Of a stretch of DNA of 32,000 nt, positions 13,676-31,359 are shown piece by piece. Position 1 is the stretch's first letter, and each line of letters starts with the position of its first letter. Source of the stretch: Candidatus Saccharimonadota bacterium. GTDB lineage: Bacteria; Patescibacteriota; Saccharimonadia; Saccharimonadales; Saccharimonadaceae. Position numbers and translations under genes: made by a program. Location: positions 900,001 through 932,000 of the forward strand of contig CP064995.1 in NCBI GenBank assembly GCA_016700015.1. The letters run 5' to 3'. The notes beneath the pieces are model-generated. The model did no database searches. It saw only the letters and a program-made list of their open reading frames with translations, and was not told the origin of the DNA.

Positions 13676-13728
13676 GTGTATACGGGTGTTTACACCGAAA
13701 GGTATATAAGCTAAAATAACACCTGTAT

Positions 13729-13749
13729 CTGCGCGCTTTATGCGCGCAG
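13729..13749 (+). terminator. GC-rich hairpin between the grpB-like gene and the tRNA (no U-tract)
   Basis: CTGCGCGC-TTTAT-GCGCGCAG forms an 8-bp perfect stem. It lacks a downstream T-run, so its role as a terminator is uncertain. Confidence 0.3.
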
Positions 13750-13768
13750 AAGCACCTGGTAAATATAT

Positions 13769-14070
13769 TCCGGCATAGCTCAGTGGTAGAGCGGATCGCT
13801 GTCGAAGTTGGCAGCCCGCGCAAGCGATTGTGCGGTGACAATGGGGTGAATTGCGGGAAACCTGCGGTCGCGAGACTATGGTAATCCGCAGCCAAGCCGA
13901 AGTTGGGTTAAAAGACTTCGGAAGGTTCAGAGACTAGGACATGAGCCCAACAATACGTGTCCATTAGCGCCCCACATCCCACGTGGATGATGAGATAGTC
14001 CGTTTCAGTGCGAAAGCAATGAGTAAAAGTAACGATTAGGTCGCTGGTTCGAGCCCAGCTGCCGGAGCCA
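13769..14070 (+). tRNA. tRNA-Asn(GUU) gene interrupted in the anticodon loop by a group I intron; CCA is encoded
   Basis: Exon 1 is 13769-13802 and exon 2 is 14030-14070. The acceptor stem is TCCGGCA/TGCCGGA, the D arm is GCTC-AGTGGTA-GAGC, the anticodon stem is GATCG/CGATT and the T arm is GCTGG-TTCGAGC-CCAGC. The discriminator is G, followed by CCA. The spliced loop is CU-GUU-AA. The spliced sequence resembles Bacillus/E. coli tRNA-Asn as I recall them. Confidence 0.88.
13803..14029 (+). ncRNA. Group I intron (227 nt, no ORF)
   Basis: The 5' exon ends in U (13802), which forms a U.G wobble in P1 (GCUGU|C 13798-13803 with GGCAGC 13810-13815). The intron ends in G (14029). Visible helices are P2 (13816-21/13830-35), P6 (CCGAAGU 13897-903/ACUUCGG 13915-21) and P7 (GACUA 13932-36/UAGUC 13996-14000). 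The core strings GCAGCCAAGCC and CAGAGACUAGGAC resemble bacterial tRNA group I introns as I recall them. Confidence 0.8.
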
Positions 14071-14082
14071 AGCTGAGCAGGC

Positions 14083-14290
14083 AAATACCCTGACCGGTTC
14101 TCATGACCGACAGGAGGATTTACCTCTTCAGCTAGTCAGTGATGATGAAGATCATCAAAACAACACCAAACCGAAAGAACCGTCCAAAAGGGCGGTTTTT
14201 GCGTATTTACCTCTGACATTTAGTCCTAAACCCGACTAGTTCCCTGTATGGCTGTTAAGTAGCGAAATACCCGACTGGTTCCCATGACCG
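14083..14290 (+). repeat. Three imperfect direct copies of a ~25-nt motif (AAATACCC(T)GAC(C/T)GGTTC(T/C)CATGACCG) just 3' of the tRNA
   Basis: Copy 1 is 14083-14109, a degenerate copy 2 is 14227-14251 and copy 3 is 14265-14290. ATTTACCTCT also occurs twice (about 14118 and 14204). Confidence 0.6.
14178..14200 (+). terminator. Rho-independent terminator downstream of the tRNA
   Basis: AACCGTCC-AAAA-GGGCGGTT forms an 8-bp stem (one G.U pair) and runs into TTTTT. Confidence 0.7.
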
Positions 14291-14348
14291 GAACGTTCTG
14301 ACCTCGAGAATAACGCGCTCAGAAGGTGATTTTTATGCTATTATTGAA

Positions 14349-14456
14349 GGGTCTAGATTTAAACAACAAGCTGGTCCATTTGCGGACTGTTCGTGCTTAT
14401 AAACGGGCAGCCACAAATAATCAGCCGAGCGCGAGCTTTGTTGTTTAGGTCTAGAC
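14349..14456. repeat. Imperfect ~23-bp inverted repeat enclosing a 62-nt spacer
   Basis: GGTCTAGATTTAAACAACAAGCT (14349-14371) pairs with AGCTTTGTTGTTTAGGTCTAGAC (14434-14456). Pairing includes GTCTAGA/TCTAGAC and AAACAACAA/TTGTTGTTT. Confidence 0.55.
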
Positions 14457-14481
14457 AGCCAGTGGCTGTCCTTTTATTTAT
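14454..14481 (+). terminator. Hairpin plus T-rich tract just upstream of the first island ORF
   Basis: GACAGC-CAGTG-GCTGTC is followed by CTTTTATTTAT. Confidence 0.5.
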
Positions 14482-14503
14482 CGACAGCCATACGGAGAAA
14501 AGT

Positions 14504-15616
14504 ATGGCAATAATAGTATCTCAGAACAACCAAAACGCACGACGTATCGAAGAATCGGGGTTCAACCTTGAGGATAATCTTCAGGAGTACGTTATTAATA
14601 ACCCCGAGATTATTCCTATATACGATATTGACGCAGATGCGCGACTCTTTGTTGCAGCGCGTGAGTTTGGGACACAGAGTGGCCCTATTGATGCACTTGG
14701 CTTTGATGCAAGAGGCAACATCTACATTATTGAAACGAAGCTATTCAAAAACCCAGATAAAAGGACGGTTGTTGCACAAGCGCTCGATTACGGTGCTTCA
14801 ATGTGGAGACACGCAACCGACTTTGATGCATTCATCGCTCAACTTGATGCTCACACACAGAAGCAGTTCGAAGCTACATTCAAAGATAAGTATCAGGCAT
14901 TCTTTTCACTAGATGACGCATCGGATAATTTGCTTACAATCAAAGACAATCTTGCCGAAGGTAATATCAAATTTGTTGTCCTAATGGATTCGCTTGATGA
15001 ACGTCTCAAAGATCTTATCATCTACGTGAATCAGAACAGTAAGTTTGATATTTACGCAGTAGATTTTGAATACTACAAACATGATCAATTCGAGATAGTC
15101 ATCCCGAAACTATATGGTACAGAAGTGAAGAAGACGGTTGCGAATAAGTCCGCAATACGCAGACAGTGGAATGAAGCGGAGTTCTTCAGGGTCGTTGATA
15201 CCGACAGGACTCTTGTAAGCGAAGCGCAGAGCGAGGTTGTTCATAAGTTGTGGGATTGGGCGAAAGCGCAGGGCGCACAATTCAGCTGGGGAACAGCATC
15301 AATTTACGGCACGTTCAACCCATTATTTCCGGAGCTTTTCAATCGTTCTTTTGTAACTGTTTCGCTTGATGGCTATATCCGCATTAACTACGGACATCTC
15401 GATCAATATCCTGAGGCACGTCGACATTTGCGTGATGTGCTTGCAAAACACCTCGTGGGGCAACCTCTTGATTCAGTAACATTGCTATCTGACGAAGAGC
15501 TGACGCACAAATTCCCAAGTATTTCTGCCGCGGGGATGCCGCGATATGTTGATATGATCACTGCCGCCTTTGACGAATTTATGGAGTGGGCAAGGAGCAA
15601 TCGTGGAGATCAATAA
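14504..15616 (+). CDS. NucS/DUF91-like PD-(D/E)xK nuclease-fold protein with an uncharacterised C-terminal domain (370 aa from ATG 14504)
   Basis: GGAG lies 7 nt upstream of ATG 14504. The ORF-track start at 14393 would read through the hairpin/terminator. The motif is GPIDALGFDARGNIYIIETKL...VVAQALDY (D...ExK...Q..Y). Confidence 0.7.
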   Translation: MAIIVSQNNQNARRIEESGFNLEDNLQEYVINNPEIIPIYDIDADARLFVAAREFGTQSGPIDALGFDARGNIYIIETKLFKNPDKRTVVAQALDYGASMWRHATDFDAFIAQLDAHTQKQFEATFKDKYQAFFSLDDASDNLLTIKDNLAEGNIKFVVLMDSLDERLKDLIIYVNQNSKFDIYAVDFEYYKHDQFEIVIPKLYGTEVKKTVANKSAIRRQWNEAEFFRVVDTDRTLVSEAQSEVVHKLWDWAKAQGAQFSWGTASIYGTFNPLFPELFNRSFVTVSLDGYIRINYGHLDQYPEARRHLRDVLAKHLVGQPLDSVTLLSDEELTHKFPSISAAGMPRYVDMITAAFDEFMEWARSNRGDQ

Positions 15617-16250
15617 AGTTGCGCTACGCGCATTTTACGAAACACATAAAGACAACTACTATACTCGACGTGATTCGAATGACGTCGGGTTATGGGACGA
15701 ACAGTACAAGTGGGCTATATTGCCATCACTCAACGCACAGCTTGCAGACTTTAGCGACATTAGTCGAGCAAATGTCGCGAATTTTATCTCGATTATTAAT
15801 AGCAACTCAAACAAAAGTAATTTCACTCACTGGATTGACATGGACGACCTTACGTCACTTGCGGAATTACCTTACGGTAACCAGATACTAGATATTGTCT
15901 GGAGCACAAAGCCTAGTAATGTAAGTGAAGCAATTGATACAGCCAACAATATATCGAACTCATTCGCTCCCCACAAGAAGTTCAGCCCATCAACGTGGGG
16001 CTATATTCTTGCCGCAAAAGACTGCTCGTCATTTGCCGTTTATCGGGAAGTCATAATGAAGAGACTTGTCGATATTAACCAACCGGCAAAGGCGAAGGGT
16101 CTGACTCAGGGCGAAAAGTACGAACTACTTAATGCATCAGCTAGGTTTCTCGGCGAGCTGATGTCTAGCGATAATGGTGATGCATCGTATCGGTATCAGG
16201 CGCTTAATGGGCAAGACTTTCTGTGGGTCACTTTGACCTACGCTACTTAA
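15603..16250 (+). CDS. Hypothetical protein, probably co-translated with the upstream nuclease-like gene
   Basis: The ORF is open from 15570. AAGGAG (15592-15597) lies 5 nt before GTG 15603, and the gene overlaps the upstream stop. I cannot assign a family. The features EQYKWAILP and a C-terminal GQDFLW are noted but uninformative. Confidence 0.55.
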   Translation: MEINKVALRAFYETHKDNYYTRRDSNDVGLWDEQYKWAILPSLNAQLADFSDISRANVANFISIINSNSNKSNFTHWIDMDDLTSLAELPYGNQILDIVWSTKPSNVSEAIDTANNISNSFAPHKKFSPSTWGYILAAKDCSSFAVYREVIMKRLVDINQPAKAKGLTQGEKYELLNASARFLGELMSSDNGDASYRYQALNGQDFLWVTLTYAT

Positions 16251-17515
16251 ACGACTTTTAGTGTACCGTTCTTGATGGCAATCTTGTCATGAATGCCGCC
16301 CGCGAACGCAGTCTTTTCTGTCTCAGTCCCATCACGAAGCACGTAGCGCGAGTATTCGACAAGTGGTGAAGCAAGTGTGACCTCGACACCATGCTGTGTT
16401 AGCACGCTGCGAGATATCATGTGATGTTTTTCGATTTTCCCTTGTAGCTTAGCACTAACATGAAGGCTTCGAGGATGTTTAACGATGAAATCCTCAAGCA
16501 GTTCACAGACGACGTCCTGGTTGAGGTATTTTTCGGTGCATTTCGTATTTATCTTACGAGTGCAGTTGTAATATACGAAGCGTTTGTATGCACCTGTTTT
16601 CTTGATGAGTTTTATTTTTTCCTGTGCAGTCATTTCCGACCCGCACTGCCCACATTTTAGTAGTCCTCGAAAGGCGAATGTTTTTGTGCCCCATTGACCA
16701 CAATATGTTCCTCGCGATTGTTGCACCTCATCCCACAACTCCTTTGTGACGAGTGGCTTGTGCGCTCCGTCGTACCAAGGGTTGTCCGGACCTTCTGGGT
16801 ACTGAAACCTGCCGTAGTAGAAGGGGTTAATGAGCATGGCGAGTATGCTACTGAGCGGTACCGACTTTCCGGTGCGGGTCGTAATATTTTGCGAGTCTAA
16901 CCATACTTTCAATTTCCGCCCGCTCCAGCCCTGTGCTGCTTTATGGAACATCTCTGTGATGATTTCAGCACGTTCAGGGTCGGGGATGATGTCGGCAACT
17001 CCCCCGAATGATCTGTTGATATACCCGAGCGGTGCTGTGCCCGGTCGCCACCCCATTTCGCATTTCGTCCGTATGCCTCGTTTCACGTTTATACTTTTAT
17101 TATCGTTCTCTAGCTTGGCCTGCGAGCAAAGAATCATGAGCAAAAACTTTTCATTTGGACTATTCGTGAAGGTTTGTGAGTAGGTGCGGATGTGAAGCAG
17201 CTTGTGCTGATCCATGAGATCAACAATTGAGCCAAGGTCACCAGCGTTGCGGCTTAGTCGATCTGGTGCCCATGTAAGAATTGCGTTATATTTCTCACTT
17301 TCTATTTCTGCGAGCATCTCATTATATAGTGGTCGCTGTCCGGAGTCTTTCGCTGAGTGGCTTTCATGTTTTTCGCATACTACGTTTAGGCCTTCTGCTT
17401 CTGCGAGTGCACGCATTTCGTTAATTTGAGAATCGATTGACATTGCCTGTCGCTCGTCGCTCTCTGAGCTTTTTCGAGCGTACAGACAATAGGTGAGTTG
17501 GTTGTTCTTTTCCAT
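16247..17515 (-). CDS. Large serine recombinase (resolvase catalytic domain + recombinase domain + zinc-ribbon)
   Basis: The N-terminal catalytic motif is YCLYARKSSESDERQAMSIDSQ. The recombinase domain reads GYINRSFGG...YYGRF. The Cys cluster is CGQCGSEM...YYNCTRK..KC. The ORF-track start at 17527 is a TTG, so ATG 17515 (MEKNN) is preferred. Confidence 0.9.
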   Translation of the reverse strand: MEKNNQLTYCLYARKSSESDERQAMSIDSQINEMRALAEAEGLNVVCEKHESHSAKDSGQRPLYNEMLAEIESEKYNAILTWAPDRLSRNAGDLGSIVDLMDQHKLLHIRTYSQTFTNSPNEKFLLMILCSQAKLENDNKSINVKRGIRTKCEMGWRPGTAPLGYINRSFGGVADIIPDPERAEIITEMFHKAAQGWSGRKLKVWLDSQNITTRTGKSVPLSSILAMLINPFYYGRFQYPEGPDNPWYDGAHKPLVTKELWDEVQQSRGTYCGQWGTKTFAFRGLLKCGQCGSEMTAQEKIKLIKKTGAYKRFVYYNCTRKINTKCTEKYLNQDVVCELLEDFIVKHPRSLHVSAKLQGKIEKHHMISRSVLTQHGVEVTLASPLVEYSRYVLRDGTETEKTAFAGGIHDKIAIKNGTLKVV

Positions 17516-17523
17516 TGCAAGGT

Positions 17524-17556
17524 ACAAGGTACCGCGTAACAGAGGTAAAGTCTAGT
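17524..17556. repeat. 33-bp repeat, copy 1: ACAAGGTACCGCG-N7-GGTAAAGTCTAGT
   Basis: The 13-nt arms are identical to those of the copy at 18845-18877, and only the 7-nt centre differs (TAACAGA vs AGGGGTG). It lies immediately upstream (minus strand) of the recombinase start. Confidence 0.75.
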
Positions 17557-17582
17557 ATAACGTGATACAATAGGAGGCATCT

Positions 17583-18506
17583 ATGAGTTTATATGCAGTA
17601 TCGGGAAATTCAGCCAAACGGGTTAAACCGCTTATCGATCGCAATGGCAAAAAGATCGTAGAGCGTGATATTCAGAATATATTTGAGGCCAGTCTCGATG
17701 AGATTTTGAACGTTACGTTTCTTGCAAGTGAATACTCAACGAGTTTCGGCGGTCGGATGGACACAATTGGAATCGACAACGAAGGTAATCCGTGCATTAT
17801 TGAGTACAAAAAGGGTCACAATGAGAGTGTTATTAACCAGGGCCTGTCATATTTACGCTGGTTACTTGATCATAAGGATAGCTTCGAAAAACTCTGTGGT
17901 TCAAAAGGCGTAACAAGAGCGATCCAGTGGGATTCTCCTCGGGTAATATGCGTAGCTGAAAGCTATAACAAGTTCGACACCGATACTGCCGACCTGCTGC
18001 CAATTAACATCGAGCTCTATCGCTATAAGCTGTATGAAAGCGGCTTGCTAACAGTGGATACGGAGAACTATCAAAAGGTCAAGATTCATAACGTTGCGAG
18101 GGTTATGAATGGTGACAAAAAGAAGCCTGAGAAGTTGCAGGAAATATATTCACTCGAAAGCCACTTGGCGCTCGCAAATGATGCAACGAAGGAACTATTT
18201 GAAGAGCTGCGTGAGCGTATACTTTCTATCGATAAGGACATCTCCGAAGAGCCAAAGAAGCTTTATGTTGCGTACAAAACGACACGCAACTTTGTCGATA
18301 TTGTTTTCAAGAAGACAAAGCTTAAGATAGCGCTTAATATAAAGTCGGGGACGATAGATGACCCGGAGGGTCTTGCTCGCGACCTTGAGTCGCCAGTGCA
18401 CGTTGGTCACTGGGGCAACGGCGATTACGAAATTGAAGTTAGCTCCATGAGTGAGCTTGACTATGCTATGAAACTCATCCAGCAGAGTTACGATATCAAT
18501 CAATAA
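17583..18506 (+). CDS. NucS/DUF91-like PD-(D/E)xK nuclease-fold protein with a DUF5655-like C-terminal domain
   Basis: AGGAGG lies 6 nt upstream. The motif is ERDIQNIF...GRMDTIGIDNEGNPCIIEYKKG...VINQGLSYLRWL. The C-terminus KKLYVAYKTTRNFVDIVFKKTKLKIALNI matches the pattern I associate with DUF5655. Confidence 0.7.
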   Translation: MSLYAVSGNSAKRVKPLIDRNGKKIVERDIQNIFEASLDEILNVTFLASEYSTSFGGRMDTIGIDNEGNPCIIEYKKGHNESVINQGLSYLRWLLDHKDSFEKLCGSKGVTRAIQWDSPRVICVAESYNKFDTDTADLLPINIELYRYKLYESGLLTVDTENYQKVKIHNVARVMNGDKKKPEKLQEIYSLESHLALANDATKELFEELRERILSIDKDISEEPKKLYVAYKTTRNFVDIVFKKTKLKIALNIKSGTIDDPEGLARDLESPVHVGHWGNGDYEIEVSSMSELDYAMKLIQQSYDINQ

Positions 18507-18819
18507 CTCGCTTAGGCGCCGCCGCTATTTGTTCGAGAATGTGCCTGAAGCTGTCAATGTTCTCGCCACCCACATGCCATTCGCGTATCCTGACAACATC
18601 TAACCCATCTTTCTCGCAGTATTTTCTGCCATCTTTGTAGTTATAAATTGTGGCAATACCAAACGGCGTTACAACCACCCATTCCGCATCAGTCTTGTGA
18701 TCGCTAGGGTTATGTATCGGCTTGCCGTATAGCGCAACCAATTGTTCGTATCCGGCCAGTAGGCTACCCTGATAGCTTGTGCCTTCTCGCTTCTTCAACA
18801 TATCTTTTATTGTGCTCAT
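18496..18819 (-). CDS. Hypothetical small protein (107 aa), mobile-element associated
   Basis: An SD-like AAAGGA lies upstream on the minus strand. The gene is preceded by repeat copy 2. I recognise no family. Confidence 0.5.
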   Translation of the reverse strand: MSTIKDMLKKREGTSYQGSLLAGYEQLVALYGKPIHNPSDHKTDAEWVVVTPFGIATIYNYKDGRKYCEKDGLDVVRIREWHVGGENIDSFRHILEQIAAAPKRVID

Positions 18820-18844
18820 TTCGTGTCCTTTCTCTTGTAACGTA

Positions 18845-18877
18845 ACAAGGTACCGCGAGGGGTGGGTAAAGTCTAGT
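18845..18877. repeat. 33-bp repeat, copy 2: ACAAGGTACCGCG-N7-GGTAAAGTCTAGT
   Basis: See copy 1. This copy overlaps the stop of the 203-aa HTH gene and precedes the 107-aa gene on the minus strand. Confidence 0.75.
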
Positions 18878-19484
18878 TACCTTGCGCCTCATCTCGATGT
18901 ACCCTTGTTCGATATTCTTGTTTTTGTTCGGCTATCTTTTCCTTAGCACCTGGAAACGCTCGATAAAATTCTTCTGTGTATACTCTGCCAAAAGCTTCAA
19001 TATCAATCGGCGCATCCGGATTATACATCCCAGCATCTATTTTCGCCGCCTCAAGCTCTTGGCGGATACGGAGCCTCTCAATCATCATGTCCAGTGCCTG
19101 GATGTCCGTACTGAAATACATTGAATCTACGCCGACAGGAAGATGTGTCATACGGCCTACGCCACGTCTGTCAAAGTATTCGCTCTCTACCCGGTTCGAT
19201 GCATACTTCTGACTGTTGTGTCGTAAATAAAATTCAATTGATCTTGGAACGCCATTGCGAGCATTCTCTATCAGTTTGGATTCCACATAGTCATTCATCG
19301 TATCTTGCCCGATTTCCTGCGCGTCGCGTACGGCATCACGAAAAGTCGTGTCGCTCTCCATCCACCGGTAAAGTGTGCTACGAGCAATGCCGATTGTTTT
19401 GCAGGCGCGCAGCATATTCGGATTTTCCTCAAGCAGCTTGAGGAGCTGTTTCTTAATTGCTTTCGATATCCTCATGGGCTGCAC
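18873..19484 (-). CDS. Phage-type HTH protein (phBC6A51 / small-terminase-like helix-turn-helix)
   Basis: NMLRACKTIGIARSTLYRWMESDTTFRDAVRDAQEIGQD...ESKLIENA...SIEFYLRH matches the phage HTH/terminase-small-subunit-like pattern. It overlaps the upstream methyltransferase gene end. Confidence 0.65.
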   Translation of the reverse strand: MQPMRISKAIKKQLLKLLEENPNMLRACKTIGIARSTLYRWMESDTTFRDAVRDAQEIGQDTMNDYVESKLIENARNGVPRSIEFYLRHNSQKYASNRVESEYFDRRGVGRMTHLPVGVDSMYFSTDIQALDMMIERLRIRQELEAAKIDAGMYNPDAPIDIEAFGRVYTEEFYRAFPGAKEKIAEQKQEYRTRVHRDEAQGN

Positions 19485-20847
19485 CTTGTGATATCAATTG
19501 TCGCTTCAAGCCGGTTTCGTTTTCCCAGCGCTTCATGATCACCTCTGCGTAGGTCGGCACCTTTTCCATGATGAAACACCTACGATTCAGTTTGGTCGAC
19601 GCAATGAGCGTACTACCGGAGCCACCGAACGGCTCAATCACAAGCGCATTGCGTTTCGTCAGTACCTTGATGTAGGGGATGAGTATGTCAATTGGCTTTG
19701 TGCCAAATATCACGCCCTGGCCTGAATGTTTTTCGTCGCTGGCGTTGAACTCAATGAAGTCAGTCGGCATATATCGTTGTCCCTTTTCATAACCCTCCCA
19801 CTGCGGCTTGCCTGATATGGCAAACAAGGCTGTTTCGTACAACTCTTGTAGTGGACCTTCCTCTTCATCGGTGTTGTATTTTACATCACCCGAACCACCA
19901 ACCATAGCGATATCGTGCTTACTAAAGAACTTGTACTTTGCACTAAATCCCTGATGTCGGTTTGGCAGGTGCCAGACAATCATATTCTTAACCTTCCAGT
20001 GCTTTTCCATCTCTTCCCATATGATGCGCAGATTCTTCCAGTTCTCGTAGCAGATGATGGAGAAGTCCACTTGTGAATGTCTGGCAACATTGTCCATCCA
20101 TAGCTCGGTGAAATTATCGGGTAGGCTTTCTGTTTCGAGGTATATCCTGTCTTGTTTTGACCCGAAGCCTTTGACTGGCTTGCCGCCGCGCTTTGCATGA
20201 AGATAATCAAGGATATAAGGAGGATCTGTCATGCACATGTCGGCCTTTTCGTCTCCCATGAGCTTTTGAAAATCCTCCACAACAGTTGAATCTCCGCACA
20301 TAAGCCGCGAATCACCCAGCTGATAAATATCACCCTTTTGAACAGATACTGTTTTTATATCAAGTTTTTTCAACTCTTTCTTTAGGTCAAAAGAGTTTTT
20401 CTCGTCCATATCTTCTATGTCAAAGATTTTGTCGATCTCTTCGGAATCAAATCCGATATCAGCAAGGAGGCTCTCGTCGAACTCTTTTAGCAGGTCATAA
20501 TCCCAGTTGCCGCCAGTACGATTGAGGCGCACACTTAAGTCACGCTCCTTCGCCTCATCGAGAGATATGTAGACAATTGGCACTTCGTTGAAGCCGAGGT
20601 TCTGCATGGCCTGTAGGCGCATATTGCCTCCAATGACAACGTTTTGTCTCTGACTGTAAGCATTGACGATGAGTGGATCCACAACGCCATACTTCTCAAT
20701 GCTTTCGCAGAGCTTCTGCATCTGCTCGTCGCTCCACTTACGAGGGTTATACTCGCTTGGCTTCAACTCGCTTATTTTGAGTTGCCGAATCTGCAACTTT
20801 CCACTAATAGTAGCCATGGGGGCACTATTCCTTTCTTTTGTGCCCAA
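19453..20847 (-). CDS. ParB-like nuclease domain fused to an N6/N4 DNA methyltransferase (beta-class, phage-type orphan MTase)
   Basis: The N-terminal ParBc-like region reads LKPSEYNPRKW...GVVDPLIVN...VIGGNMRLQA. The catalytic motif is DPPY (CMTDPPYILDY). The C-terminal AdoMet motif is EPFGGSGST. Confidence 0.9.
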   Translation of the reverse strand: MGTKERNSAPMATISGKLQIRQLKISELKPSEYNPRKWSDEQMQKLCESIEKYGVVDPLIVNAYSQRQNVVIGGNMRLQAMQNLGFNEVPIVYISLDEAKERDLSVRLNRTGGNWDYDLLKEFDESLLADIGFDSEEIDKIFDIEDMDEKNSFDLKKELKKLDIKTVSVQKGDIYQLGDSRLMCGDSTVVEDFQKLMGDEKADMCMTDPPYILDYLHAKRGGKPVKGFGSKQDRIYLETESLPDNFTELWMDNVARHSQVDFSIICYENWKNLRIIWEEMEKHWKVKNMIVWHLPNRHQGFSAKYKFFSKHDIAMVGGSGDVKYNTDEEEGPLQELYETALFAISGKPQWEGYEKGQRYMPTDFIEFNASDEKHSGQGVIFGTKPIDILIPYIKVLTKRNALVIEPFGGSGSTLIASTKLNRRCFIMEKVPTYAEVIMKRWENETGLKRQLISQGAAHEDIESN

Positions 20848-21121
20848 ACAAAAGGCACAACGTTAGATTGATAAAAGTAAATGAATAACGAAAAATCCAC
20901 ACTGTGGTTAGTTAGGATTTTCGCCTCCTTTTTATGCAATCTTGGTTGTGCCTAAGATTTTCAATAATTCATTTAAGGTTCACTTACGATAGGTAAGCAA
21001 TACCAGTATAGCAGGCAGTATTTGACAATGCAACATATTTATTTGGTAAAAAGTAGTATAAAGGGGACAATAACGGTAGATAGTGGTTGCTGCTGTGCGT
21101 GAGTTATCTCAAGAACTAAGG

Positions 21122-21127
21122 TATAAT
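21122..21127 (+). promoter_or_regulatory. Candidate -10 box (TATAAT) for the hsdR operon
   Basis: A perfect TATAAT lies 14 nt upstream of the hsdR ATG in an AT-rich 293-nt intergenic region. A TTGACA (21022-21027) lies further upstream. No clear SD precedes hsdR. Confidence 0.3.
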
Positions 21128-21140
21128 ATACGTAGTTACT

Positions 21141-23546
21141 ATGAACAAAAGCACGCTGACTGAAGCAGAGATACGCACACGCTACATTACACCCGCCATT
21201 CTGGCCGCCGGCTGGCCATTAGACGCTGTCCGAGAAGAGTTTGTTTACTTCACGAAAGGACGCATTGAGGTTCGCGGCAAATTATCCGTAAGGAAAGATG
21301 CAAAACGCGTTGACTATCTACTCATGCGCAACGATGGCACAAACACACCCCTGGCAGTTGTAGAGGCTAAAGACAATAAACACGGCGTTGGTGACGGCAT
21401 GCAGCAAGCAGTCGAATACGCTGAGTCACTTGACGTACCTTTTGTGTTTACATGTAATGGAGATTCCTTTTTGATGCGCGATCGGACGGGGCTGTTGACG
21501 TCTGCAGAAAAGGAGATTGCCCTAAATAACTTTCCATCACCGGCGCACCTAGATAGTCTGTATAAACAGTGGAGGGGAATAGAGAGGGCCGATGTCCAAG
21601 TCCTGAGCTCACCGTATTACGAAGATGGCAGTGGAAAACAGCCGCGCTATTATCAAAGGGTTGCCATTAATCGTACAATTGAGGCGATCGCAAAGGATCA
21701 AAAACGGATACTCCTCGTTATGGCCACAGGGACTGGCAAGACCTACACGGCAGCACAGATTATTTGGAGATACTGGAAGGCACCATCTCAAAGTAGCAAG
21801 CAGAAACGAATTCTATTTCTTGCCGACCGCAACATTCTCGTAGATCAGACTAAGACAAACGATTTTAAACACTTTGGATCGGCCATGACAAAAATTACTG
21901 GTCGTAACATCGAGAAGGAGTATGAGATTTACCTAAGTCTCTATCAGGCCATTTCTGGTAGTGACGAGGCGAGGAACGCATATAAGGAATTTTCCCCAGA
22001 TTTTTTTGATCTCATCGTTGTAGATGAATGTCACAGAGGCAGTTCGAAAGAGGACAGCAGCTGGCAAGAAATCTTACGCTATTTCAACAGTGCTACACAG
22101 GTGGGGCTTACTGCTACGCCAATTGAAACCAAAGAAGCCAGCAACACACATTACTTTGGCGAACCGATATACACGTATTCACTGAAGAACGGCATCGACG
22201 ACGGATTTCTCGCGCCATACAAGGTTATTCGTGTTGCAACCGACGTTGATACATTTGGGTATCGTCCTGAAGAAGGCGAAGTCGACGATGAAGGTAACGA
22301 AATTGAGGATAGGGAATATTCCACGAAGGACTTTGATCGCAGGATTATCCTGCCTCAACGCGACCAAGAGGTGGCTAGGTATTTAACTAAATTTCTAGAA
22401 AAAACAGATCCATATGCGAAAACTATCGTATTTGCCCGTACGATCAATCATGCGGAACGCCTACGCAGAGCACTCGTTAACATCAATGCTGAAAAAGTAC
22501 GTGAAAGCAGCAGATACATTATGCGCATTACGGGAGACGATGAGCTTGGTAAGGCACAGCTTGATAATTTTATTGATCCTGAGTCACGTTATCCTGTCAT
22601 TGCCATCACGAGCAAGCTCATGACGACGGGCGTCGACGCACAAACATGTAAGGTTATTGTTCTTGATAGCAATATCGAAAGCATGACAGAGTTCAAGCAA
22701 ATCATTGGGCGTGGTACTCGCGTCCGCGAAGATTATGGAAAAACCTACTTCACCATTTTAGACTTTCGTAATGTCACTAAGCTTTTTGCTGACCCGGACT
22801 TTGACGGTGACCCCGTAAAAGTATACGAACCTAAAAATGAGGAAGAGTTCAATGACACGATTGACGCTATAGATGAGTCAGTCGATGAAGCTACATCAGG
22901 CAGCGATGATGCCGCCATAGATAGCTTTGTAGATGGGGCTATTTACTACCCAGATCCCAAGGATGGTAGAAGTGACCGACCAGTTGTCCATACTATAAGC
23001 AGTCAGAAGGTTACTATTATCGGTGACAGTGTACGTATTATGGACACAGACGGGAAGCTTATAACAGAGAGCCTAACTGACTATACGCGTAAAAACATTC
23101 TCGGCGAATATGCAACTCTTGATGAGTTTTTACAGAAATGGTCATCGGCAAAGCAGAAATACTTTATTCTAGACGAGATGGCCGAAAAAGATATTCCAAT
23201 CTATGAGCTAGCAGACGCTTACGGCAAAGATGCTGACATGTTTGACGTTGTCACGAGTATTGCGTATGGACAAAAGCCGCTAGGGCGTAAGACTCGAGCC
23301 GAGAAGGTTCGTCACAGCAGGTTTATTAATCAGTACCAAGGTAAAGCTCGTGAAGTGCTGGAAGCACTTGTAGATAAGTACGAATCGACGAACTTAAAAG
23401 CAATTGAGGAGCGGGAAATCCTCAAGGTGCAGCCGCTTGACTCTTTCGGAACACCAATCGAGATTGCTAACTTGTTTGGAGGCATTGATGGTTATGAAGA
23501 GGCGGTCGGTAGACTCGCAGGTGAATTATATGAGGTAGCAATCTAA
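21141..23546 (+). CDS. hsdR: Type I restriction enzyme R subunit (EcoAI/EcoEI-like, type IB-style architecture)
   Basis: The N-terminal PD-(D/E)xK reads VDYLL...AVVEAKD. Helicase motif I is MATGTGKT and motif II is VDECHRGS. Later helicase motifs are TSKLMTTGVDA and QIIGRGTR. A C-terminal EcoEI_R_C-like tail is present. Confidence 0.93.
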   Translation: MNKSTLTEAEIRTRYITPAILAAGWPLDAVREEFVYFTKGRIEVRGKLSVRKDAKRVDYLLMRNDGTNTPLAVVEAKDNKHGVGDGMQQAVEYAESLDVPFVFTCNGDSFLMRDRTGLLTSAEKEIALNNFPSPAHLDSLYKQWRGIERADVQVLSSPYYEDGSGKQPRYYQRVAINRTIEAIAKDQKRILLVMATGTGKTYTAAQIIWRYWKAPSQSSKQKRILFLADRNILVDQTKTNDFKHFGSAMTKITGRNIEKEYEIYLSLYQAISGSDEARNAYKEFSPDFFDLIVVDECHRGSSKEDSSWQEILRYFNSATQVGLTATPIETKEASNTHYFGEPIYTYSLKNGIDDGFLAPYKVIRVATDVDTFGYRPEEGEVDDEGNEIEDREYSTKDFDRRIILPQRDQEVARYLTKFLEKTDPYAKTIVFARTINHAERLRRALVNINAEKVRESSRYIMRITGDDELGKAQLDNFIDPESRYPVIAITSKLMTTGVDAQTCKVIVLDSNIESMTEFKQIIGRGTRVREDYGKTYFTILDFRNVTKLFADPDFDGDPVKVYEPKNEEEFNDTIDAIDESVDEATSGSDDAAIDSFVDGAIYYPDPKDGRSDRPVVHTISSQKVTIIGDSVRIMDTDGKLITESLTDYTRKNILGEYATLDEFLQKWSSAKQKYFILDEMAEKDIPIYELADAYGKDADMFDVVTSIAYGQKPLGRKTRAEKVRHSRFINQYQGKAREVLEALVDKYESTNLKAIEEREILKVQPLDSFGTPIEIANLFGGIDGYEEAVGRLAGELYEVAI

Positions 23547-24991
23547 TGTTAGGCGCAGGATTCATTAAAAGTATTCAAAACGAAATGCGTAAAGATAATG
23601 GTGTCGACGGTGATGCCCAGCGCTTGAGTCAGCTTGTGTGGCTTATTTTCTTAAAGATTATGGATGATAATGAGCAGCAAAAAGAGCTACTCGACAAAAA
23701 ATATGTAGCCGCAGTTCCAGAGAGATATCGGTGGAAAAATTGGGCTGCTTCTCCCGATGGTCTTACTGGCGATCGTTTGCTTGAATTCATCAACAGAGAG
23801 CTGTTTTCAGATCTGAAAAATATTGAGATTAAACAGGACAATCGCCGAACCGCTGTTGTGCGTGAAGTATTCGCTGAGTCTACAAACTTTATGAAAGACG
23901 GTACGCAGCTTCGCAAGGTCATTAATATTATCAATGGCATAAACTTCAACTCTTCCGATGATCGACACTCATTTGGGGATATCTACGAGACGCTGCTTGC
24001 AAGCCTTCAGTCCGCAGGTAACGCAGGAGAATTCTACACCCCAAGGGCGGTTACAAAATTTATTATTGATCGTATCAACCCAAAGCTTGGCGAAAAGGTG
24101 CTCGACCCAGCTGCTGGTACTGGGGGGTTCCTGACGGGTGCAATTGACCATATTCGCAAAGAGGTTGAAACTCCAGAAGATGATGAGCTTTTACAGAAAT
24201 CTATCTACGGGGTGGAGTGGAAACAGCTACCGTACTCGCTCCTGATTACTAATATGATCTTTCACGGTATTGAAGAACCTGACAACATTCGTCATGACGA
24301 CACTTTGTCTAGACCATACATTTCATATGGTCCAGAAGATTATGTTGATTGTATTGCGGCTAACCCTCCATTTGGTGGCGTAGTAAAAGACGGTACTGAG
24401 CATAACTTTCCTTCAAGTTTTCGCACCAAGGAAACTGCAGACCTATTCCTGATTTTGTTCATTCGCTTGCTGAAGCAAGGTGGTCGTGCAGGTATTGTTT
24501 TGCCAGATGGTTTTTTATTTGGTGAAGGTGCTAAAACTCGTATTAAGCAGCATCTACTCGAGGAGTGCAACCTCCACACAATTATTCGTTTGCCCGGTAG
24601 TGTGTTTGCTCCATATACATCTATAGCAACTAACTTATTATTCTTTACAAAGGGCGAGCCAACGAAAGAGATTTGGTATTATGAGCATCGGCTACCTGAA
24701 GGAGTAAAGGCGTACAACAAAACCAAGCCTATTCGTCTCGAAGAATTTGACCCTATCAAGGAATGGTGGGACAACCGCACTGACAGCGACGTCGCCTGGA
24801 AGGTTAGTGTCGATGAGATTAAAAAGCGTGATTACAATCTCGATATTAAGAATCCAAATGTTGTCGAAGTCGATGAGCTGAACCCAGAAGAGGTGCTCGA
24901 GAGCTATCGGGCGAAGCAAGCAGAAGTTAAAAATATCCTGGAACAGATTAAGGTAGAGTTAACTGAGGCGCTGTCGCATCATGACAAGTAG
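23546..24991 (+). CDS. hsdM: Type I restriction-modification N6-adenine DNA methyltransferase M subunit
   Basis: Motif I is VLDPAAGTGGFL and motif IV is IAANPPFGG. The start overlaps the hsdR stop (TAATG). Confidence 0.93.
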   Translation: MLGAGFIKSIQNEMRKDNGVDGDAQRLSQLVWLIFLKIMDDNEQQKELLDKKYVAAVPERYRWKNWAASPDGLTGDRLLEFINRELFSDLKNIEIKQDNRRTAVVREVFAESTNFMKDGTQLRKVINIINGINFNSSDDRHSFGDIYETLLASLQSAGNAGEFYTPRAVTKFIIDRINPKLGEKVLDPAAGTGGFLTGAIDHIRKEVETPEDDELLQKSIYGVEWKQLPYSLLITNMIFHGIEEPDNIRHDDTLSRPYISYGPEDYVDCIAANPPFGGVVKDGTEHNFPSSFRTKETADLFLILFIRLLKQGGRAGIVLPDGFLFGEGAKTRIKQHLLEECNLHTIIRLPGSVFAPYTSIATNLLFFTKGEPTKEIWYYEHRLPEGVKAYNKTKPIRLEEFDPIKEWWDNRTDSDVAWKVSVDEIKKRDYNLDIKNPNVVEVDELNPEEVLESYRAKQAEVKNILEQIKVELTEALSHHDK

Positions 24992-27170
24992 TGTTAAGGA
25001 TTTGAGGGTACTCGTCGATAATCTCGATGAGTATATTCGCATACCTGGTGGCGTAGATCGTCTTAAGAAGATGATACTGCATCTCGCCGTATCGGGTCAG
25101 CTTGTACCCCAGGATGCAGGCGAAGGTACTGGCGAGCAGCTATATGAACAGATTCGCGAAGTCTATAAGCCGAAAAAATCACTGCCAGAAGTTGACGTCG
25201 CTCCATTTACTATACCGATGAGCTGGCGATGGACTAGGCTAGGTGATCTGTTTGATATAACATCTAGTAGGCGTGTTATGCAGGCTGATTGGAAGAGTTC
25301 TGGAATCCCGTTTTTACGGGCTCGTGATTTAGCTAATGCCGTAAAGACTGGCCGTATTGAGGCAGAAGTATTTGTTAGTGAAGAGTATTATGGCGAGGTA
25401 GCTAAGAGTAGTGGCGTACCTGTTCCTGGAGATATAATGGTTAGTGGCGTTGGTACTATCGGTATACCATATATAGTCAAGATTAGTGATAGGTTCTACT
25501 TCAAAGACGCGACTATACTTTGGTTTCGAAATCCAGCAAAAGTCCTTGCTGATTTTGTTGAAATTGTTTTTCATGCTGAGTTCATGAAGAATGTCATCAT
25601 TAGTCAATCACAAGGCACGACAGTAAGTACTTACACAATTGCTGATGCGCGGCTTAATATGATGCCGTTGCCCCCACTCGCTGAGCAGGAGCGGATCATA
25701 GAGAAGAGAGATGTCCTCTTTGCTTTGATAGACGATTTGTCAAAAAAATATGCCGAAGAAGAGGCGCGACGCAAAAAACTAATAGGTAGCTTGTTGGGGG
25801 CATTTTCGGATAAAAATAACAGCAAAGCACTGGAACTATTATCAGAGCTGGTCCGATCTAAGGAGGATATATGGTGGCTGAGAAACTTCATTCTACATCA
25901 GGCTGTTTCTGGTAGGCTTACACAATCAGATCCAAGCTCTGAAGGTGTGCAAGTGCTATATGAAAGAGCACTTTTGGAACGTGCCAAGGTGCAATCGGGT
26001 AGCCACAAGCCACTACCGATCATCGAGAAACATGAAGGTGACTACGAGTTGCCAGATACCTGGCGTTGGGCTCGTCTTGGTGAGGTTACCAACTATGGGA
26101 AAACAGAAAAACGTAAGCCGGTAGATATTTCGGAGGAAACCTGGCTATTGGAACTTGAAGATATAGAGAAGAATTCTTCAAAGTTAATTTCAAAAGTCAC
26201 GGCAAACGAAAGAAACCCTTCAAGCGACAAAAATATATTTCGTAAGGGCGATGTATTATATGGAAAACTGCGTCCGTATTTGGACAAGGTTATTGTGGCG
26301 GATACTGATGGCGTGTGTTCAAGTGAAATACTTCCAATTAGGGCCTATGGTGATTCTATCCACCCCGAATATCTACTACTCGTAATGAAGTCTCCAAACT
26401 TTGTAGCGACAGTTAACGAGATGACGTACGGTGTAAAGATGCCGAGACTGGGCACTGAAGACGGTCGAAAGATGCTGATTCCACTTGCACCTTACGCAGA
26501 GCAGCTAGAGATAGTTGAGAGAACAAAACGACTACTTAGCCTGGTTGCTATGCTTGAGTCTGTATTTGACTCTCCTTGTATACCTATAGAAAGAGTATTA
26601 GTGAAAGACAATAGGTGGTGGTTTGCCCTTAAACAGGGCATTGGATCTGTGTTAGACAAACTTTCTAAAACACAGTACGAGCGTGGCGAGATGGTCATTG
26701 CAAAGTACATGTATCTCCTACAAGAAGTTTATAAAGTACCTTTCGGACTTCAGTTTGTTAAGCATCAGTTTGGACCATATGATCCTGATATCAAGAAGGC
26801 TATTTTAGGTAGTTCGTTCAATAAAGATAAGTTCTTCACGGTTAAAGGGTCGGGTGTGAAGCAGGTCTATAGTTTGGGCATGAAAAGCGATACACTTATG
26901 AAATACTCCTCAGATATCCTCACATCTGCACAGTCGTCACTAGATGAGTTGATGCAATATACTGCGAATGCGAAAAGCCGCGACATTGAGCGACTTGCAA
27001 CGGTCTGTAAAATCATTCAAGATAGCCAGTCAAATGATGAGCGGGTTGTGATAAATGAGATGAAAGCCTGGAAGAATGATAAATTCCCACCAGAAGAGGT
27101 AAGAAAGACTTTAGCCTTTGTTCATCAAAAAGGGTGGGATTCCAAGTTAATAAGAGGATCTTCGGTTTAA
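24981..27170 (+). CDS. hsdS: Type I RM specificity subunit with two target-recognition domains plus an unusual ~195-aa C-terminal extension (Panacea/DUF4065-like)
   Basis: TRD-flanking conserved repeats are present: PMSWRWTRLGDLF / PDTWRWARLGEVT, PLPPLAEQERII / PLAPYAEQLEIV, and LHLAVSGQL / LHQAVSGRL. At 729 aa the protein is far longer than typical HsdS. The tail contains AKYMYLLQEVYKVPFGLQFVKHQFGPYDPDI. Confidence 0.88.
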   Translation: MTSSVKDLRVLVDNLDEYIRIPGGVDRLKKMILHLAVSGQLVPQDAGEGTGEQLYEQIREVYKPKKSLPEVDVAPFTIPMSWRWTRLGDLFDITSSRRVMQADWKSSGIPFLRARDLANAVKTGRIEAEVFVSEEYYGEVAKSSGVPVPGDIMVSGVGTIGIPYIVKISDRFYFKDATILWFRNPAKVLADFVEIVFHAEFMKNVIISQSQGTTVSTYTIADARLNMMPLPPLAEQERIIEKRDVLFALIDDLSKKYAEEEARRKKLIGSLLGAFSDKNNSKALELLSELVRSKEDIWWLRNFILHQAVSGRLTQSDPSSEGVQVLYERALLERAKVQSGSHKPLPIIEKHEGDYELPDTWRWARLGEVTNYGKTEKRKPVDISEETWLLELEDIEKNSSKLISKVTANERNPSSDKNIFRKGDVLYGKLRPYLDKVIVADTDGVCSSEILPIRAYGDSIHPEYLLLVMKSPNFVATVNEMTYGVKMPRLGTEDGRKMLIPLAPYAEQLEIVERTKRLLSLVAMLESVFDSPCIPIERVLVKDNRWWFALKQGIGSVLDKLSKTQYERGEMVIAKYMYLLQEVYKVPFGLQFVKHQFGPYDPDIKKAILGSSFNKDKFFTVKGSGVKQVYSLGMKSDTLMKYSSDILTSAQSSLDELMQYTANAKSRDIERLATVCKIIQDSQSNDERVVINEMKAWKNDKFPPEEVRKTLAFVHQKGWDSKLIRGSSV

Positions 27171-27172
27171 CA

Positions 27173-27694
27173 ATGGCACACGTAGCCCTTATTGACATGA
27201 CGGCCGTCGAAGCACGAAAAGTCCTGTTGAAAAATGATAGCTATATTAACTTTGATTTACCAAATTATTTTAACTTTAGTCCTTTGTTGAACGCGATATC
27301 TACTAAGATGACTGGTAGTGTTTGGCAGGAGTTTCAAGGTATCGTCATTGACGATGACGGAAAGCCAAAGACAGCAAAAGATGGTAGTGAGATTCGAAAG
27401 AATCCGGGCTATCAATTTGGCGTTAATCATAGAATTGTTGTTAACAAAAACTCCAATCTATCATGGAGACCGCTTGAACTGACACATCCTGTCCTTTACG
27501 TTGCTTTGGCGCATTTATTTACCGACGAAGAAAACTGGAAGCTACTCACAGAGCGGTTCAAAAGTTTCAAGAGAGATACGATTGAAGTTGCCAGTATCCC
27601 CCCGGTAAATCATTTGATAAGAAATCAAATAAGGCAGAACAGATCAGGAAGTGGTGGGAGAAGAGCGAACAGCGTAGCGTCGAACTTGGACTAG
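27173..27694 (+). CDS. Abi/UG-type reverse transcriptase, N-terminal fragment (frame 1 of a split gene)
   Basis: ATG 27173 lies 2 nt after the hsdS stop. The N-terminus reads LLKNDSYINFDLPNYFNF. An RT motif 1/2-like segment is NLSWRPLELTHPVLYVAL. The frame ends at 27694, downstream of a C6 tract (27598-27603). Confidence 0.7.
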   Translation: MAHVALIDMTAVEARKVLLKNDSYINFDLPNYFNFSPLLNAISTKMTGSVWQEFQGIVIDDDGKPKTAKDGSEIRKNPGYQFGVNHRIVVNKNSNLSWRPLELTHPVLYVALAHLFTDEENWKLLTERFKSFKRDTIEVASIPPVNHLIRNQIRQNRSGSGGRRANSVASNLD

Positions 27695-27741
27695 AGTATA
27701 GCTATATTAGCGAGACAGACATATCGGACTGCTATAGCTCA

Positions 27742-28749
27742 ATGTATACGCATTCGGTTGCCTGGGCTATACATGGCCGCGATGAAGCCTTTGAGCAACA
27801 GCGCAATAAAGAACTGCTTGGAAATAAAATCGATGACATTTTGATGGCTATGCACCATCGGCAAACCAATGGTATTCCGCAGGGAAGTGCGATGTACGAC
27901 TTTATTGCCGAGCTAGTACTGGGCTATGTTGATACATTGCTAGTTGACGCAATAAGCAAGGAAAGCATTGAAGAGTATCGGATCATTCGATTTAGGGATG
28001 ATTATAAGATTTTCACCAAAAATCCAACAGACGGAAAGAAGATCCTTCGAGTTATTAGCGATACGCTTATAGACTTCGGTCTTAGGCTAAATGCGACGAA
28101 GACTGTCTTTGGCCGAAGTCTCATTGATGCATCGTTCAAGGCAGATAAGCTTGACGGGCTTTTCGTTCCCAAGATCGAAAACAACTACGCGAAACACCTG
28201 ATGCAAATCCATCAATTTTCTGAGAAATATCCAAATTCTGGTCAAGTTTCTAGGATGCTCAACATTCTCCACGATGATATGTATGCACGGTTAGGGGGTG
28301 GGTTAAAGAAGGACCTGAAGGATTACGAGAAGCCAAAAGTTATGATCAGCATTCTTGTTGATATGTGTGCTAAAAATCCAAGATTCTACAATATCATCGC
28401 CGCCATGATTAGTCTTCTTCTTTCGCAGCTGTCTGATGAAGACAAGGTTGCGACGGCACGTATTGTTCATGATCGGCTTCGAGCATTGCCAAACACGGGG
28501 CTACTGGATCTATGGTTGCAACGAGCTGTGTACAAATACGACCAAACTTTGTCATTTGGTGAACCGCTAGCACAAGTCCCAATACTGCATGACGGAAAGC
28601 CTGTTGGGATATGGAACAACGAGTGGCTCAACCAAGAGGCGATAGATCTAATAATGTCAGCAACGGTTGTAGATGTAGACCTCTACGCGAATAACTCTGC
28701 AGTTACGACCCGTGGTGAAGTCGATGAATTTAGGGATATACCGAGTTAA
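27742..28749 (+). CDS. Abi/UG-type reverse transcriptase, catalytic and C-terminal helical fragment (frame 2; the frame is open from 27586)
   Basis: RT motif A is TDISDCYSSMYTH (27715-27753, partly upstream of the first ATG). Motif B is GIPQGSAMYDFIAELVL (27871-). Motif C is RFRDDYKIF (27988-). Motif D/E-like is GLRLNATKT. A C-terminal alpha-helical repeat-like region follows. Confidence 0.8.
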   Translation: MYTHSVAWAIHGRDEAFEQQRNKELLGNKIDDILMAMHHRQTNGIPQGSAMYDFIAELVLGYVDTLLVDAISKESIEEYRIIRFRDDYKIFTKNPTDGKKILRVISDTLIDFGLRLNATKTVFGRSLIDASFKADKLDGLFVPKIENNYAKHLMQIHQFSEKYPNSGQVSRMLNILHDDMYARLGGGLKKDLKDYEKPKVMISILVDMCAKNPRFYNIIAAMISLLLSQLSDEDKVATARIVHDRLRALPNTGLLDLWLQRAVYKYDQTLSFGEPLAQVPILHDGKPVGIWNNEWLNQEAIDLIMSATVVDVDLYANNSAVTTRGEVDEFRDIPS

Positions 28750-28751
28750 CT

Positions 28752-30101: not shown

Positions 30102-30706
30102 GAGTAGCATGCCCTAGCTGTGGTTCGACAAACACGTGTCGCATTCAGTATGGCATGCCTGATTTCACCGAGAAGCTTGAGCGAGATGTTGAAGCCGGAA
30201 AAGTTCACTTAGGCGGGTGTGTCGTATTAGGAGGTGACCCGAATCGTTACTGTAACAACTGCGAAATAGACTTCGATACCAATGCTACAAGTATTTATCT
30301 CGACATCGACGGCGTGCTACTCGCAAATGAAAAAACCGCCGCTAATTATGCCAATGAATTCATTCAGACTGTTTTAGATCGGTATCCGTATACGACTTAC
30401 TGGCTCACCACCCACTGCTGGAGGGGCGAGAATAACGCTAAGGAAGTTCTGAGCCCTTATCTGAGACCAGACATACTCCCACTACTCGATAAGATAAAGC
30501 CGACCGAGTGGGGAGAAGAAAAGACTGACGCTATAGACTTCAGTAAGCCGTTTAAATGGTTTGATGACGACCTGTACGAAAAGGAGCTAGCGGTGCTTGC
30601 GGAAAATAATGCACTTGAGAGCTGGGTAGAGATTGATTTATCTAAGGATCCTGACCAGCTCGCGCAGAGTATCTGTGACCTACAGAACGAGGCGTGGGCA
30701 AAATGA
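30098..30706 (+). CDS. Zinc-ribbon plus HAD-superfamily phosphatase-like protein
   Basis: It shares an ATGA start/stop overlap with the upstream gene. The Zn ribbon is CPSCGS...CNNCE. HAD motif I is YLDIDGVLL, motif II-like is WLTTH and the acidic motif IV-like is WFDDD. Confidence 0.65.
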   Translation: MRVACPSCGSTNTCRIQYGMPDFTEKLERDVEAGKVHLGGCVVLGGDPNRYCNNCEIDFDTNATSIYLDIDGVLLANEKTAANYANEFIQTVLDRYPYTTYWLTTHCWRGENNAKEVLSPYLRPDILPLLDKIKPTEWGEEKTDAIDFSKPFKWFDDDLYEKELAVLAENNALESWVEIDLSKDPDQLAQSICDLQNEAWAK

Positions 30707-31194: not shown

Positions 31195-31324
31195 TCTTAG
31201 ATAGGCGAAAAGTTCACTTATCGTTTCTGGGGTGGCAAAATGGATCAATGTATGAAATGCCGTGCTCCTTCGTGAATATGTCAGCGATATATCACTATAT
31301 GTTATTGCGCGGAGGTTGAGCACG

Positions 31325-31353
31325 TTGTAATTGATAGCTTACGACTCTATAAT
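31325..31353 (+). promoter_or_regulatory. Sigma70-like promoter giving an apparently leaderless transcript
   Basis: TTGTAA (31325-31330), a 17-nt spacer and TATAAT (31348-31353) are present. The ATG at 31360 lies 7 nt after the -10 box, and there is no SD. Confidence 0.55.
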
Positions 31354-31359
31354 GAGCTT

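Follow-up and report, generated by a model that had tools for sequence, protein, structure and literature searches.

A tRNA-Asn(GUU) gene of a Saccharibacteria-like bacterium interrupted inside the anticodon by a group I intron of the Asn.4Ug class

The window analysed here, a stretch of 32,000 nucleotides from Candidatus Saccharimonadota, holds a tRNA-Asn(GUU) gene in two exons, the intervening group I intron and, directly downstream, a lower-GC region with mobile and defence genes (Table 1). The Rfam scan of the whole window matched the group I intron model (RF00028) full-length at 13725-14022, with 70.2 bits (E 4.6e-16) against a gathering score of 50 bits, and this was the sole Rfam match at the gathering threshold in the window. 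ARAGORN reported 0 tRNAs in the raw 32-kb window under default settings, and after removal of 13803-14029 it recognized a canonical 75-nt tRNA-Asn(gtt) cloverleaf with loop CU-GUU-AA, discriminator G73 and U1-A72. The original prediction had read the locus as a tRNA-Asn(GUU) split at 35/36 by a group I intron and had derived the same cloverleaf from the spliced sequence; both points are borne out by the Rfam and ARAGORN results and by the 67 uninterrupted genes described below.

Table 1. Features of the split tRNA-Asn(GUU) gene, its intron and the flanking DNA (window positions).
Feature	Position	Strand	Description
Promoter-like site	13689-13717	+	TTTACA-17-TAAAAT, 52 nt upstream of tRNA; 10/12 match, not above shuffled expectation
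tRNA-Asn(GUU) 5' exon	13769-13802	+	34 nt, TCCGGCATAGCTCAGTGGTAGAGCGGATCGCTGT, 3' end CUGU; acceptor 5' strand, D arm, anticodon stem 5' strand, C32 U33 G34 U35; ARAGORN (spliced), 67 uninterrupted genes
P1	13798-13815	+	GCUGU plus intron base C (13798-13803) with internal guide GGCAGC (13810-13815); 6-nt loop L1; recovered by MFE
Group I intron	13803-14029	+	227 nt, no ORF; 5' CGAAGTTGGCAGC (first base C), 3' AAAAG; omega-G at 14029
P2	13816-13835	+	8 bp, GCGA tetraloop; compensatory changes in 8/8 pairs; recovered by MFE
P3 5' strand	13842-13848	+	UGGGGUG, partner 13968-13974; 97.8% of cells paired, 3 pairs double-changed
P4	13852-13857 / 13885-13890	+	UGCGGG/UCCGCA; 99-100% paired, compensatory changes; encloses P5, P5a
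P5/P5a	13861-13881	+	GCGA tetraloop
P6 and P6a	13891-13926	+	P6 GCC/GGU, P6a 7 bp; loop UGGGUUAAAAG, complementary to P7.1 loop; P6a compensatory changes in 7/7 pairs
P7 5' strand	13930-13936	+	G-AGACUA, bulged A, partner 13996-14001; 6/6 pairs invariant; Rfam alignment
P7.1-like hairpin	13937-13962	+	GGACA(UG)...(CG)UGUCC, 26 nt; 5 pairs covary; fills P7.1 columns of Williams' alignment
P3 3' strand	13968-13974	+	CGCCCCA
P8	13975-13989	+	CAUCC/GGAUG; 96% paired; 4 pairs double-changed
J8/7 and P7 3' strand	13990-14001	+	J8/7 AUGAGA, P7 3' strand UAGUCC; invariant block ATGA.ATAGTCC
P9	14004-14023	+	GAAA tetraloop; Rfam alignment; 8 pairs covary, 72% paired
tRNA-Asn 3' exon	14030-14070	+	41 nt, TAACGATTAGGTCGCTGGTTCGAGCCCAGCTGCCGGAGCCA, 5' end UAAC; U36 A37 A38, anticodon stem 3' strand, variable loop, T arm, acceptor 3' strand, discriminator G, encoded CCA; ARAGORN, 67 uninterrupted genes
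Lower-GC mobile/defence region	14071-32000	.	To window end; context, not part of the intron
Large serine recombinase	16247-17527	-	2.2 kb downstream of tRNA-Asn, convergent
ParB-methylase	19453-20847	-	
Type I R-M	21141-27170		hsdR 21141-23546, hsdM 23546-24991, hsdS-like 24981-27170
Reverse transcriptase	27742-28749		
DUF2779 protein	28752-30101		

The predicted ligated junction AGAGCGGATCGCTGTTAACGATTAGGTCGC was found on 69 contigs in a scan of a metagenome collection, and 67 of these carry an uninterrupted tRNA-Asn that is identical at 75/75 positions to the predicted spliced product. Many of these contigs also carry the genes that lie upstream in the window (LexA-like, beta-lactamase-like), at 65-86% nucleotide identity. 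The group I intron is thus present in or absent from an otherwise identical tRNA gene, with exons identical at 75/75 positions. Since the spliced sequence equals the 67 uninterrupted genes, the splice sites between U35 and U36 are unambiguous; moreover, the first base of the intron (C) differs from the first base of exon 2 (T) and its last base (G) from the last base of exon 1 (T), so that the deletion of 13803-14029 is unique. At the sequence level, these data confirm that a group I intron genuinely interrupts the tRNA-Asn(GUU) gene between anticodon positions U35 and U36.

Two other accounts of the split were weighed against these data. The metagenomic source of the contig might suggest an assembly chimera, but three independent ENA assemblies (L001-L003) contain the 302-nt split gene without a single difference, which rules out and refutes such an artefact, and the same architecture is met in more than 113 other genomes; we give a chimera next to no credence. 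The other account comes from ARAGORN itself, whose intron mode (-i) reports tRNA-Asp (gtc) i(37,227), meaning that the intron would sit at the canonical 37/38 position of a tRNA-Asp(GUC). However, the program tries only its own fixed intron position, the 5' exon would then end in G and the intron in A, and the call conflicts with the invariant U.G pair of the family and with the CUGUUAA read by all 67 uninterrupted genes. The Asp(gtc) call is refuted by these genes as an artefact of the intron mode, and its chance of being right is practically nil. Default tRNA finders miss the split gene altogether, so that such genomes appear to be without tRNA-Asn, a difficulty in tRNA finding that was also noted by Lui et al. 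2021 (PMC8172020).

A P1-P9 model of the intron was scored on a MAFFT alignment of the window sequence and 25 homologues from other genomes. In these 26 sequences, standard pairs filled 89.5% of cells, versus 36-43% when the 3' partners were slid by 1-3 columns, compensatory changes were seen in 46/66 pairs, and the covariation score reached 0.52, versus 0.08-0.12 in the slid controls. The group I core (P3-P7 pseudoknot, P4-P6 stack and P8) is present in the intron, P7 being the guanosine-binding helix that is pseudoknotted with P3 in the model. Unconstrained minimum free energy (MFE) folding of the 302-nt precursor recovered the acceptor, D and T arms together with P1, P2, P3, P4, P5, P6, P7.1 and P8, and the MFE lay at z = -3.3 relative to shuffles. 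The window copy conforms to the family in every invariant core column; its P9 is short and contains a G.A mismatch. The wobble at the 5' splice site is formed within P1 by U35 (13802) and G13811; neither this U-1.G pair nor any of the six P7 pairs varies (26/26 sequences), and U-1 and omega-G are found in 83/83 family members. By contrast with this invariance, covariation is seen in the pair across the 5' splice site, between intron +1 and the guide, which is AU in 10 sequences, CG in 8, GC in 5, UA in 2 and GU in 1. The original prediction had proposed a 6-bp P1 in which the last U of the 5' exon pairs with a G of the guide GGCAGC, an intron ending in G (here G14029) and visible P2, P6 and P7 helices, and all of these stand: P1 by the invariant U.G and the covarying +1 pair, the terminal G by its conservation, P2 and P6a by compensatory changes and P7 by its invariance in the 26 sequences. 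It had also considered a P10, for which 4 bp (GUUG/UAAC) are indeed possible in the window copy; as a family feature, however, P10 is not conserved, at least 3 bp being available in 22% of homologues versus 14% in shuffled controls. The alignment produced by Rfam placed P1 at 13728-13750, which was rejected as an unrelated upstream hairpin.

The extra hairpin between P7 and P3', called P7.1-like in the original prediction, earns this name by its place in Williams' alignment and by its covarying pairs (Table 1), and its loop carries a conserved GAG...CAAUA motif. In the window copy, L6a (GGGU, 13906-13916) is complementary to L7.1 (GCCC, 13944-13949), and elsewhere the two loops are complementary through other sequences (GAGGA/UCCUC in L173, UGGGG/CCCCA in L161). 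Among 15 members with a single 'GAG...CAAUAA' hairpin, complementarity between L6a and L7.1 was greater within own sequences than across sequences (permutation p ~0.01, for 15 related sequences with kinship ignored). These observations are suggestive of L6a-L7.1 as a candidate tertiary kissing contact, which would explain the peripheral element of the original prediction.

A preprint describes a purely computational screen of ~80,000 genomes (Williams, bioRxiv 2020, 10.1101/2020.01.27.920355), by which the four classical tRNA settings of group I introns (Leu.3Ug, Arg.5Ug, fMet.2Ug and Ile2.5Ug, all IC3) were extended to 21, that is, by 17 new settings. 'Asn.4Ug' is among these 17, and the accompanying seed alignment (gpI.sto) contains 'Pam37.Asn.4Ug', in the same tRNA and at the same site as here. 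Over the intron, the two are collinear, with 67% identity between the window copy and Pam37.Asn.4Ug. Both share the tRNA, the site CUGU/UAA, U-1 and omega-G, the GCAGC guide, a P7.1 hairpin with a GAG..AAC.AAUA loop and P8 CAUCC/GGAUG, whereas the Pam37 intron is longer (270 nt), with additional hairpins separating the 5' splice site from the guide; the 227-nt window intron has a single P2 and a minimal P1 loop of 6 nt. Judged by this likeness, the window intron is a new member of a catalogued and widespread class, Asn.4Ug. The Asn(GUU) host had been thought unfamiliar in the original prediction; with this entry (Williams 2020) and at least 114 species genomes carrying such a gene, that view does not hold. 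Nor is an insertion inside the anticodon exceptional, as had also been supposed, since the same alignment has Lys.4Ug, Tyr.4Ug and Asp.4Ug introns, all at 35/36, and the classical Leu intron lies at 34/35 (Williams 2020). The current understanding of group I introns is left unchanged by the finding.

The classical IC3 introns, such as those of Azoarcus tRNA-Ile(CAU), Anabaena and other cyanobacterial tRNA-Leu(UAA), tRNA-fMet and Agrobacterium tRNA-Arg(CCU), resemble the window intron in being small, ORF-less and located in the anticodon loop; likewise, their P1 is made from the anticodon stem-loop, L2 and L9 are GNRA tetraloops, and the core is GCCAAG + AGAGACUA. They differ from it in host tRNA and site and in the absence of a hairpin between P7 and P3': in IC3 introns the P3' strand comes directly after P7, with no P7.1/P7.2, whereas 26 nt of hairpin (13937-13962) intervene in the window intron. 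Moreover, J8/7 reads AUGAGAUAGUCC in the window versus AAGG.AUAGUCC in the IC3 rows of Williams' alignment, and P3/J3-4 reads GGGUGAAUU versus GUCAAAUUC; the two window motifs match the lower block of that alignment (Lys.2Ug, Phe.2Ug, Leu.1Ug and tmRNA). On architectural grounds, the window intron is not of the classical IC3 type. Its P7-P3' insertion is shared with introns of IA type (P7.1/P7.2), represented by phage introns and by the tmRNA T-loop introns of Williams' alignment, although the window copy has a single hairpin and a tRNA, not a protein gene, as its host; many members of the Asn family possess both P7.1 and P7.2. The core pattern AGAGACTA..AGCGYCC..ATGAKATAGTCC (P7..P3'..J8/7) occurs on at least 120 viral contigs. 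From these features we infer an IA-like architecture, which would be shared with phage introns. A search of a cultured-phage database gave only 5 weak partial matches. Among the viral matches listed (L007-L126, including L041 and L077), 7 are closely followed by a T-arm-like sequence, and two viral contigs match the tRNA-Asn 3'-exon pattern.

The distribution of the family was examined by scanning species-representative genomes with a J8/7-P7'-P9-omegaG-3' exon pattern, which gave at least 120 loci; exons were paired with our own script, the intron mode of ARAGORN having given mixed and wrong calls on homologues. In 114 of 120 loci among the matches listed, the split tRNA-Asn is complete; the intron measures 188-450 nt in 82 loci and 519-723 nt in a further 32. 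The incomplete remainder is cut by contig ends. The hosts among the matches listed are mostly Patescibacteria (Saccharibacteria, Parcubacteria/Paceibacterota and others), in which the Asn setting is very common, and include cyanobacteria, Nitrospirota, delta- and gamma-proteobacterial MAGs, Omnitrophota, Elusimicrobia, Margulisiibacteriota, Rokubacteria and Binatia. The closest introns among the matches listed (L196, L167, L245 and L173) are 74-75% identical to the window intron, and L173, an uncultured Saccharibacteria MAG, shares upstream synteny with the window; this one syntenic locus suggests that the organism of the window is Saccharibacteria-like. Two archaeal-binned contigs, a Woesearchaeota MAG (L208) and a Methanosarcinales MAG (L213), carry a split tRNA-Asn of bacterial type; they are probably mis-binned, a suspicion that Williams (2020) also raised in a comparable case. 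The E. coli genomes searched gave no match, and a literature search for tRNA-Asn with group I intron, by those terms, returned organelle papers only.

In the variants of 519-723 nt, an insertion of ~300 nt in the P1 loop codes for a conserved protein of ~100-135 aa with the motif CxxC...HH...CANCH. Such an HNH ORF is found in about a quarter of the family among the matches listed (L130, L131, L133, L135, L145, L150, L157 and ~25 other genome loci), at intron positions ~20-360. The encoded proteins match PHROG HNH endonuclease families (E ~1e-28, phrog_2255), HNH matches in Pfam being sub-threshold only. The 3' end of the ORF overlaps the guide and P2, the conserved C-terminal ..ITQLP being coded by ..ACGCAGCTTCC.., and the window copy, with its 6-nt P1 loop, has no HNH ORF. 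These ORFs, and with them the presence or absence of the intron between otherwise identical exons, support the view of Asn.4Ug as a family of homing introns. A homing endonuclease, I-Ssp6803I, is carried by the tRNA-fMet intron of Synechocystis. Endonuclease-bearing members are likewise found in the Asn family, implying homing at the DNA level into intron-less tRNA genes; its enzyme differs in being an HNH protein of ~105 aa, coded in the P1 loop with its 3' end over the guide, and is lacking in the window copy.

Apart from the P1 pairing and the core helices with their covariation, which are observed, the splicing mechanism proposed here is taken from the canonical group I pathway. Transcription of the gene would give a 302-nt precursor. 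In it, P1 is formed between the guide GGCAGC and GCUGU, the 5' side of the anticodon stem-loop, and would present the U35.G wobble; the conserved P3-P7/P4-P6 core folds next. An external guanosine bound in P7 would attack after U35; the terminal G14029 would then take the same P7 site, and the free 3'-OH of U35 would attack before U36. Ligation of the exons would yield the 75-nt tRNA, whose anticodon loop reads CUGUUAA. The P7.1 hairpin may act as a peripheral brace, its loop probably kissing the P6a loop. Among intron-less relatives, no contig was listed twice, including six of 0.5-1.07 Mb, in a 30-mer search that is blind to a divergent second copy. Because no contig was listed twice, a single tRNA-Asn locus is suggested, and we infer that the split gene may be the sole tRNA-Asn and that its splicing would be required. 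If the gene is single-copy, the translation of Asn codons depends on ribozyme activity.

Alternatively, the intron could be real but this copy catalytically dead, the split gene being a pseudogene and another, intact tRNA-Asn elsewhere serving translation. Such a gene could lie beyond the window, as the visible genome is 32 kb and ARAGORN finds no other tRNA in it; the HNH ORF is lost or absent in this copy and its P9 has the G.A mismatch. Against decay, no base of the exons differs from the functional-looking genes of 67 relatives, all invariant core columns are kept, the helices are all intact, the sequence is the same in three assemblies, and the near-complete contigs of relatives have one tRNA-Asn locus each. 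We consider a dead copy very unlikely. It might also be that the intron is spliced in vivo only with a protein cofactor or chaperone, and not autonomously. Protein help is needed by many group I introns, and the small size of this copy, its weak P10 and its short P9 would fit with such a need. However, the intron encodes no maturase and combines a compact GC-rich core with three GNRA tetraloops (L2 GCGA, L5a GCGA and L9 GAAA), an arrangement typical of self-sufficient small bacterial introns. A strict dependence on protein is therefore unlikely in our view. The reading that we favor, with a probability of about 0.85, is that a Saccharibacteria-like bacterium here has a genuine tRNA-Asn(GUU) gene, split between U35 and U36 by a 227-nt ORF-less Asn.4Ug intron that would be spliced canonically. 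A wider reading, which we offer as tentative and somewhat doubtful, would join the above observations: Asn.4Ug might home by means of an HNH endonuclease whose C-terminus is coded by the guide, share its core type with phage introns and interrupt the sole tRNA-Asn of ultra-reduced Patescibacteria, in which the ribozyme would be essential for reading AAU/AAC, and a previously undescribed P6a-P7.1 kiss might stabilise the minimal ORF-less form.

The tRNA had also been regarded in the original prediction as the integration landmark of an island. GC content drops at the tRNA from ~0.50 to ~0.45 (after 14000), and the region downstream codes, besides the genes of Table 1, for a DUF5655 protein. In 22 of the 107 related loci with enough flank, tRNA-Asn is followed by a homologous recombinase within 3 kb, and in none is one found upstream; the recombinase is present in 14/43 intact-gene loci and in 8/64 split-gene loci, always convergent, and ~330-920 nt downstream in L242, L157, L131, L301, L278, L284, L253, L277 and others. 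Many intron-less relatives show an empty site, with a terminator hairpin directly after the tRNA followed by unrelated genes. Judged by these related loci, the 3' flank of tRNA-Asn is a hot-spot where insertions recur whether or not the intron is present. No att copy of the tRNA 3' end was found in the window by a direct-repeat search allowing up to 3 mismatches, and the island may pass base 32000; serine recombinases need no long att repeat. The landmark role is thus circumstantially supported by the downstream serine recombinase, the GC shift and the empty sites, but not by any att repeat in the window.

Several smaller features were seen in the flanks. A cluster of defence type (type I R-M, reverse transcriptase and DUF2779 protein) spans 21141-30101. 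In L268, a direct repeat of the tRNA 3' end (CAGCCCAGCTGCCTGCCGGAGCCA) occurs ~75 nt downstream of tRNA-Asn, followed by the usual empty-site terminator, and it resembles the scar left by an element that was once integrated there. Upstream, the stretch from the promoter-like site to the start of the tRNA contains a perfect 10-bp hairpin at 13728-13750 (TCTGCGCGCT-TTA-TGCGCGCAGA), which may be a leader structure or the grpB terminator. A search of the conserved element 14050-14420 against Rfam, by E-value, gave no match. Directly after CCA there is an imperfect palindrome or hairpin of 65 nt (14071-14135, AGCTGAGCAGGCAAATACC...GGATTTACCTCTTCAGCT), whose arms show compensatory changes in L301, L294, L247, L284, L278 and L273 and whose core CYGACCGGTTCYCATGACCG occurs three times in the window (14084-14110, 14228-14250 and 14265-14292); it could be an att site of the recombinase or a small RNA. 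Further downstream, a terminator-like hairpin at 14178-14204 (AACCGTCC-AAAA-GGGCGGTT, then TTT), unflagged by the consensus scan, is kept in the same related loci.
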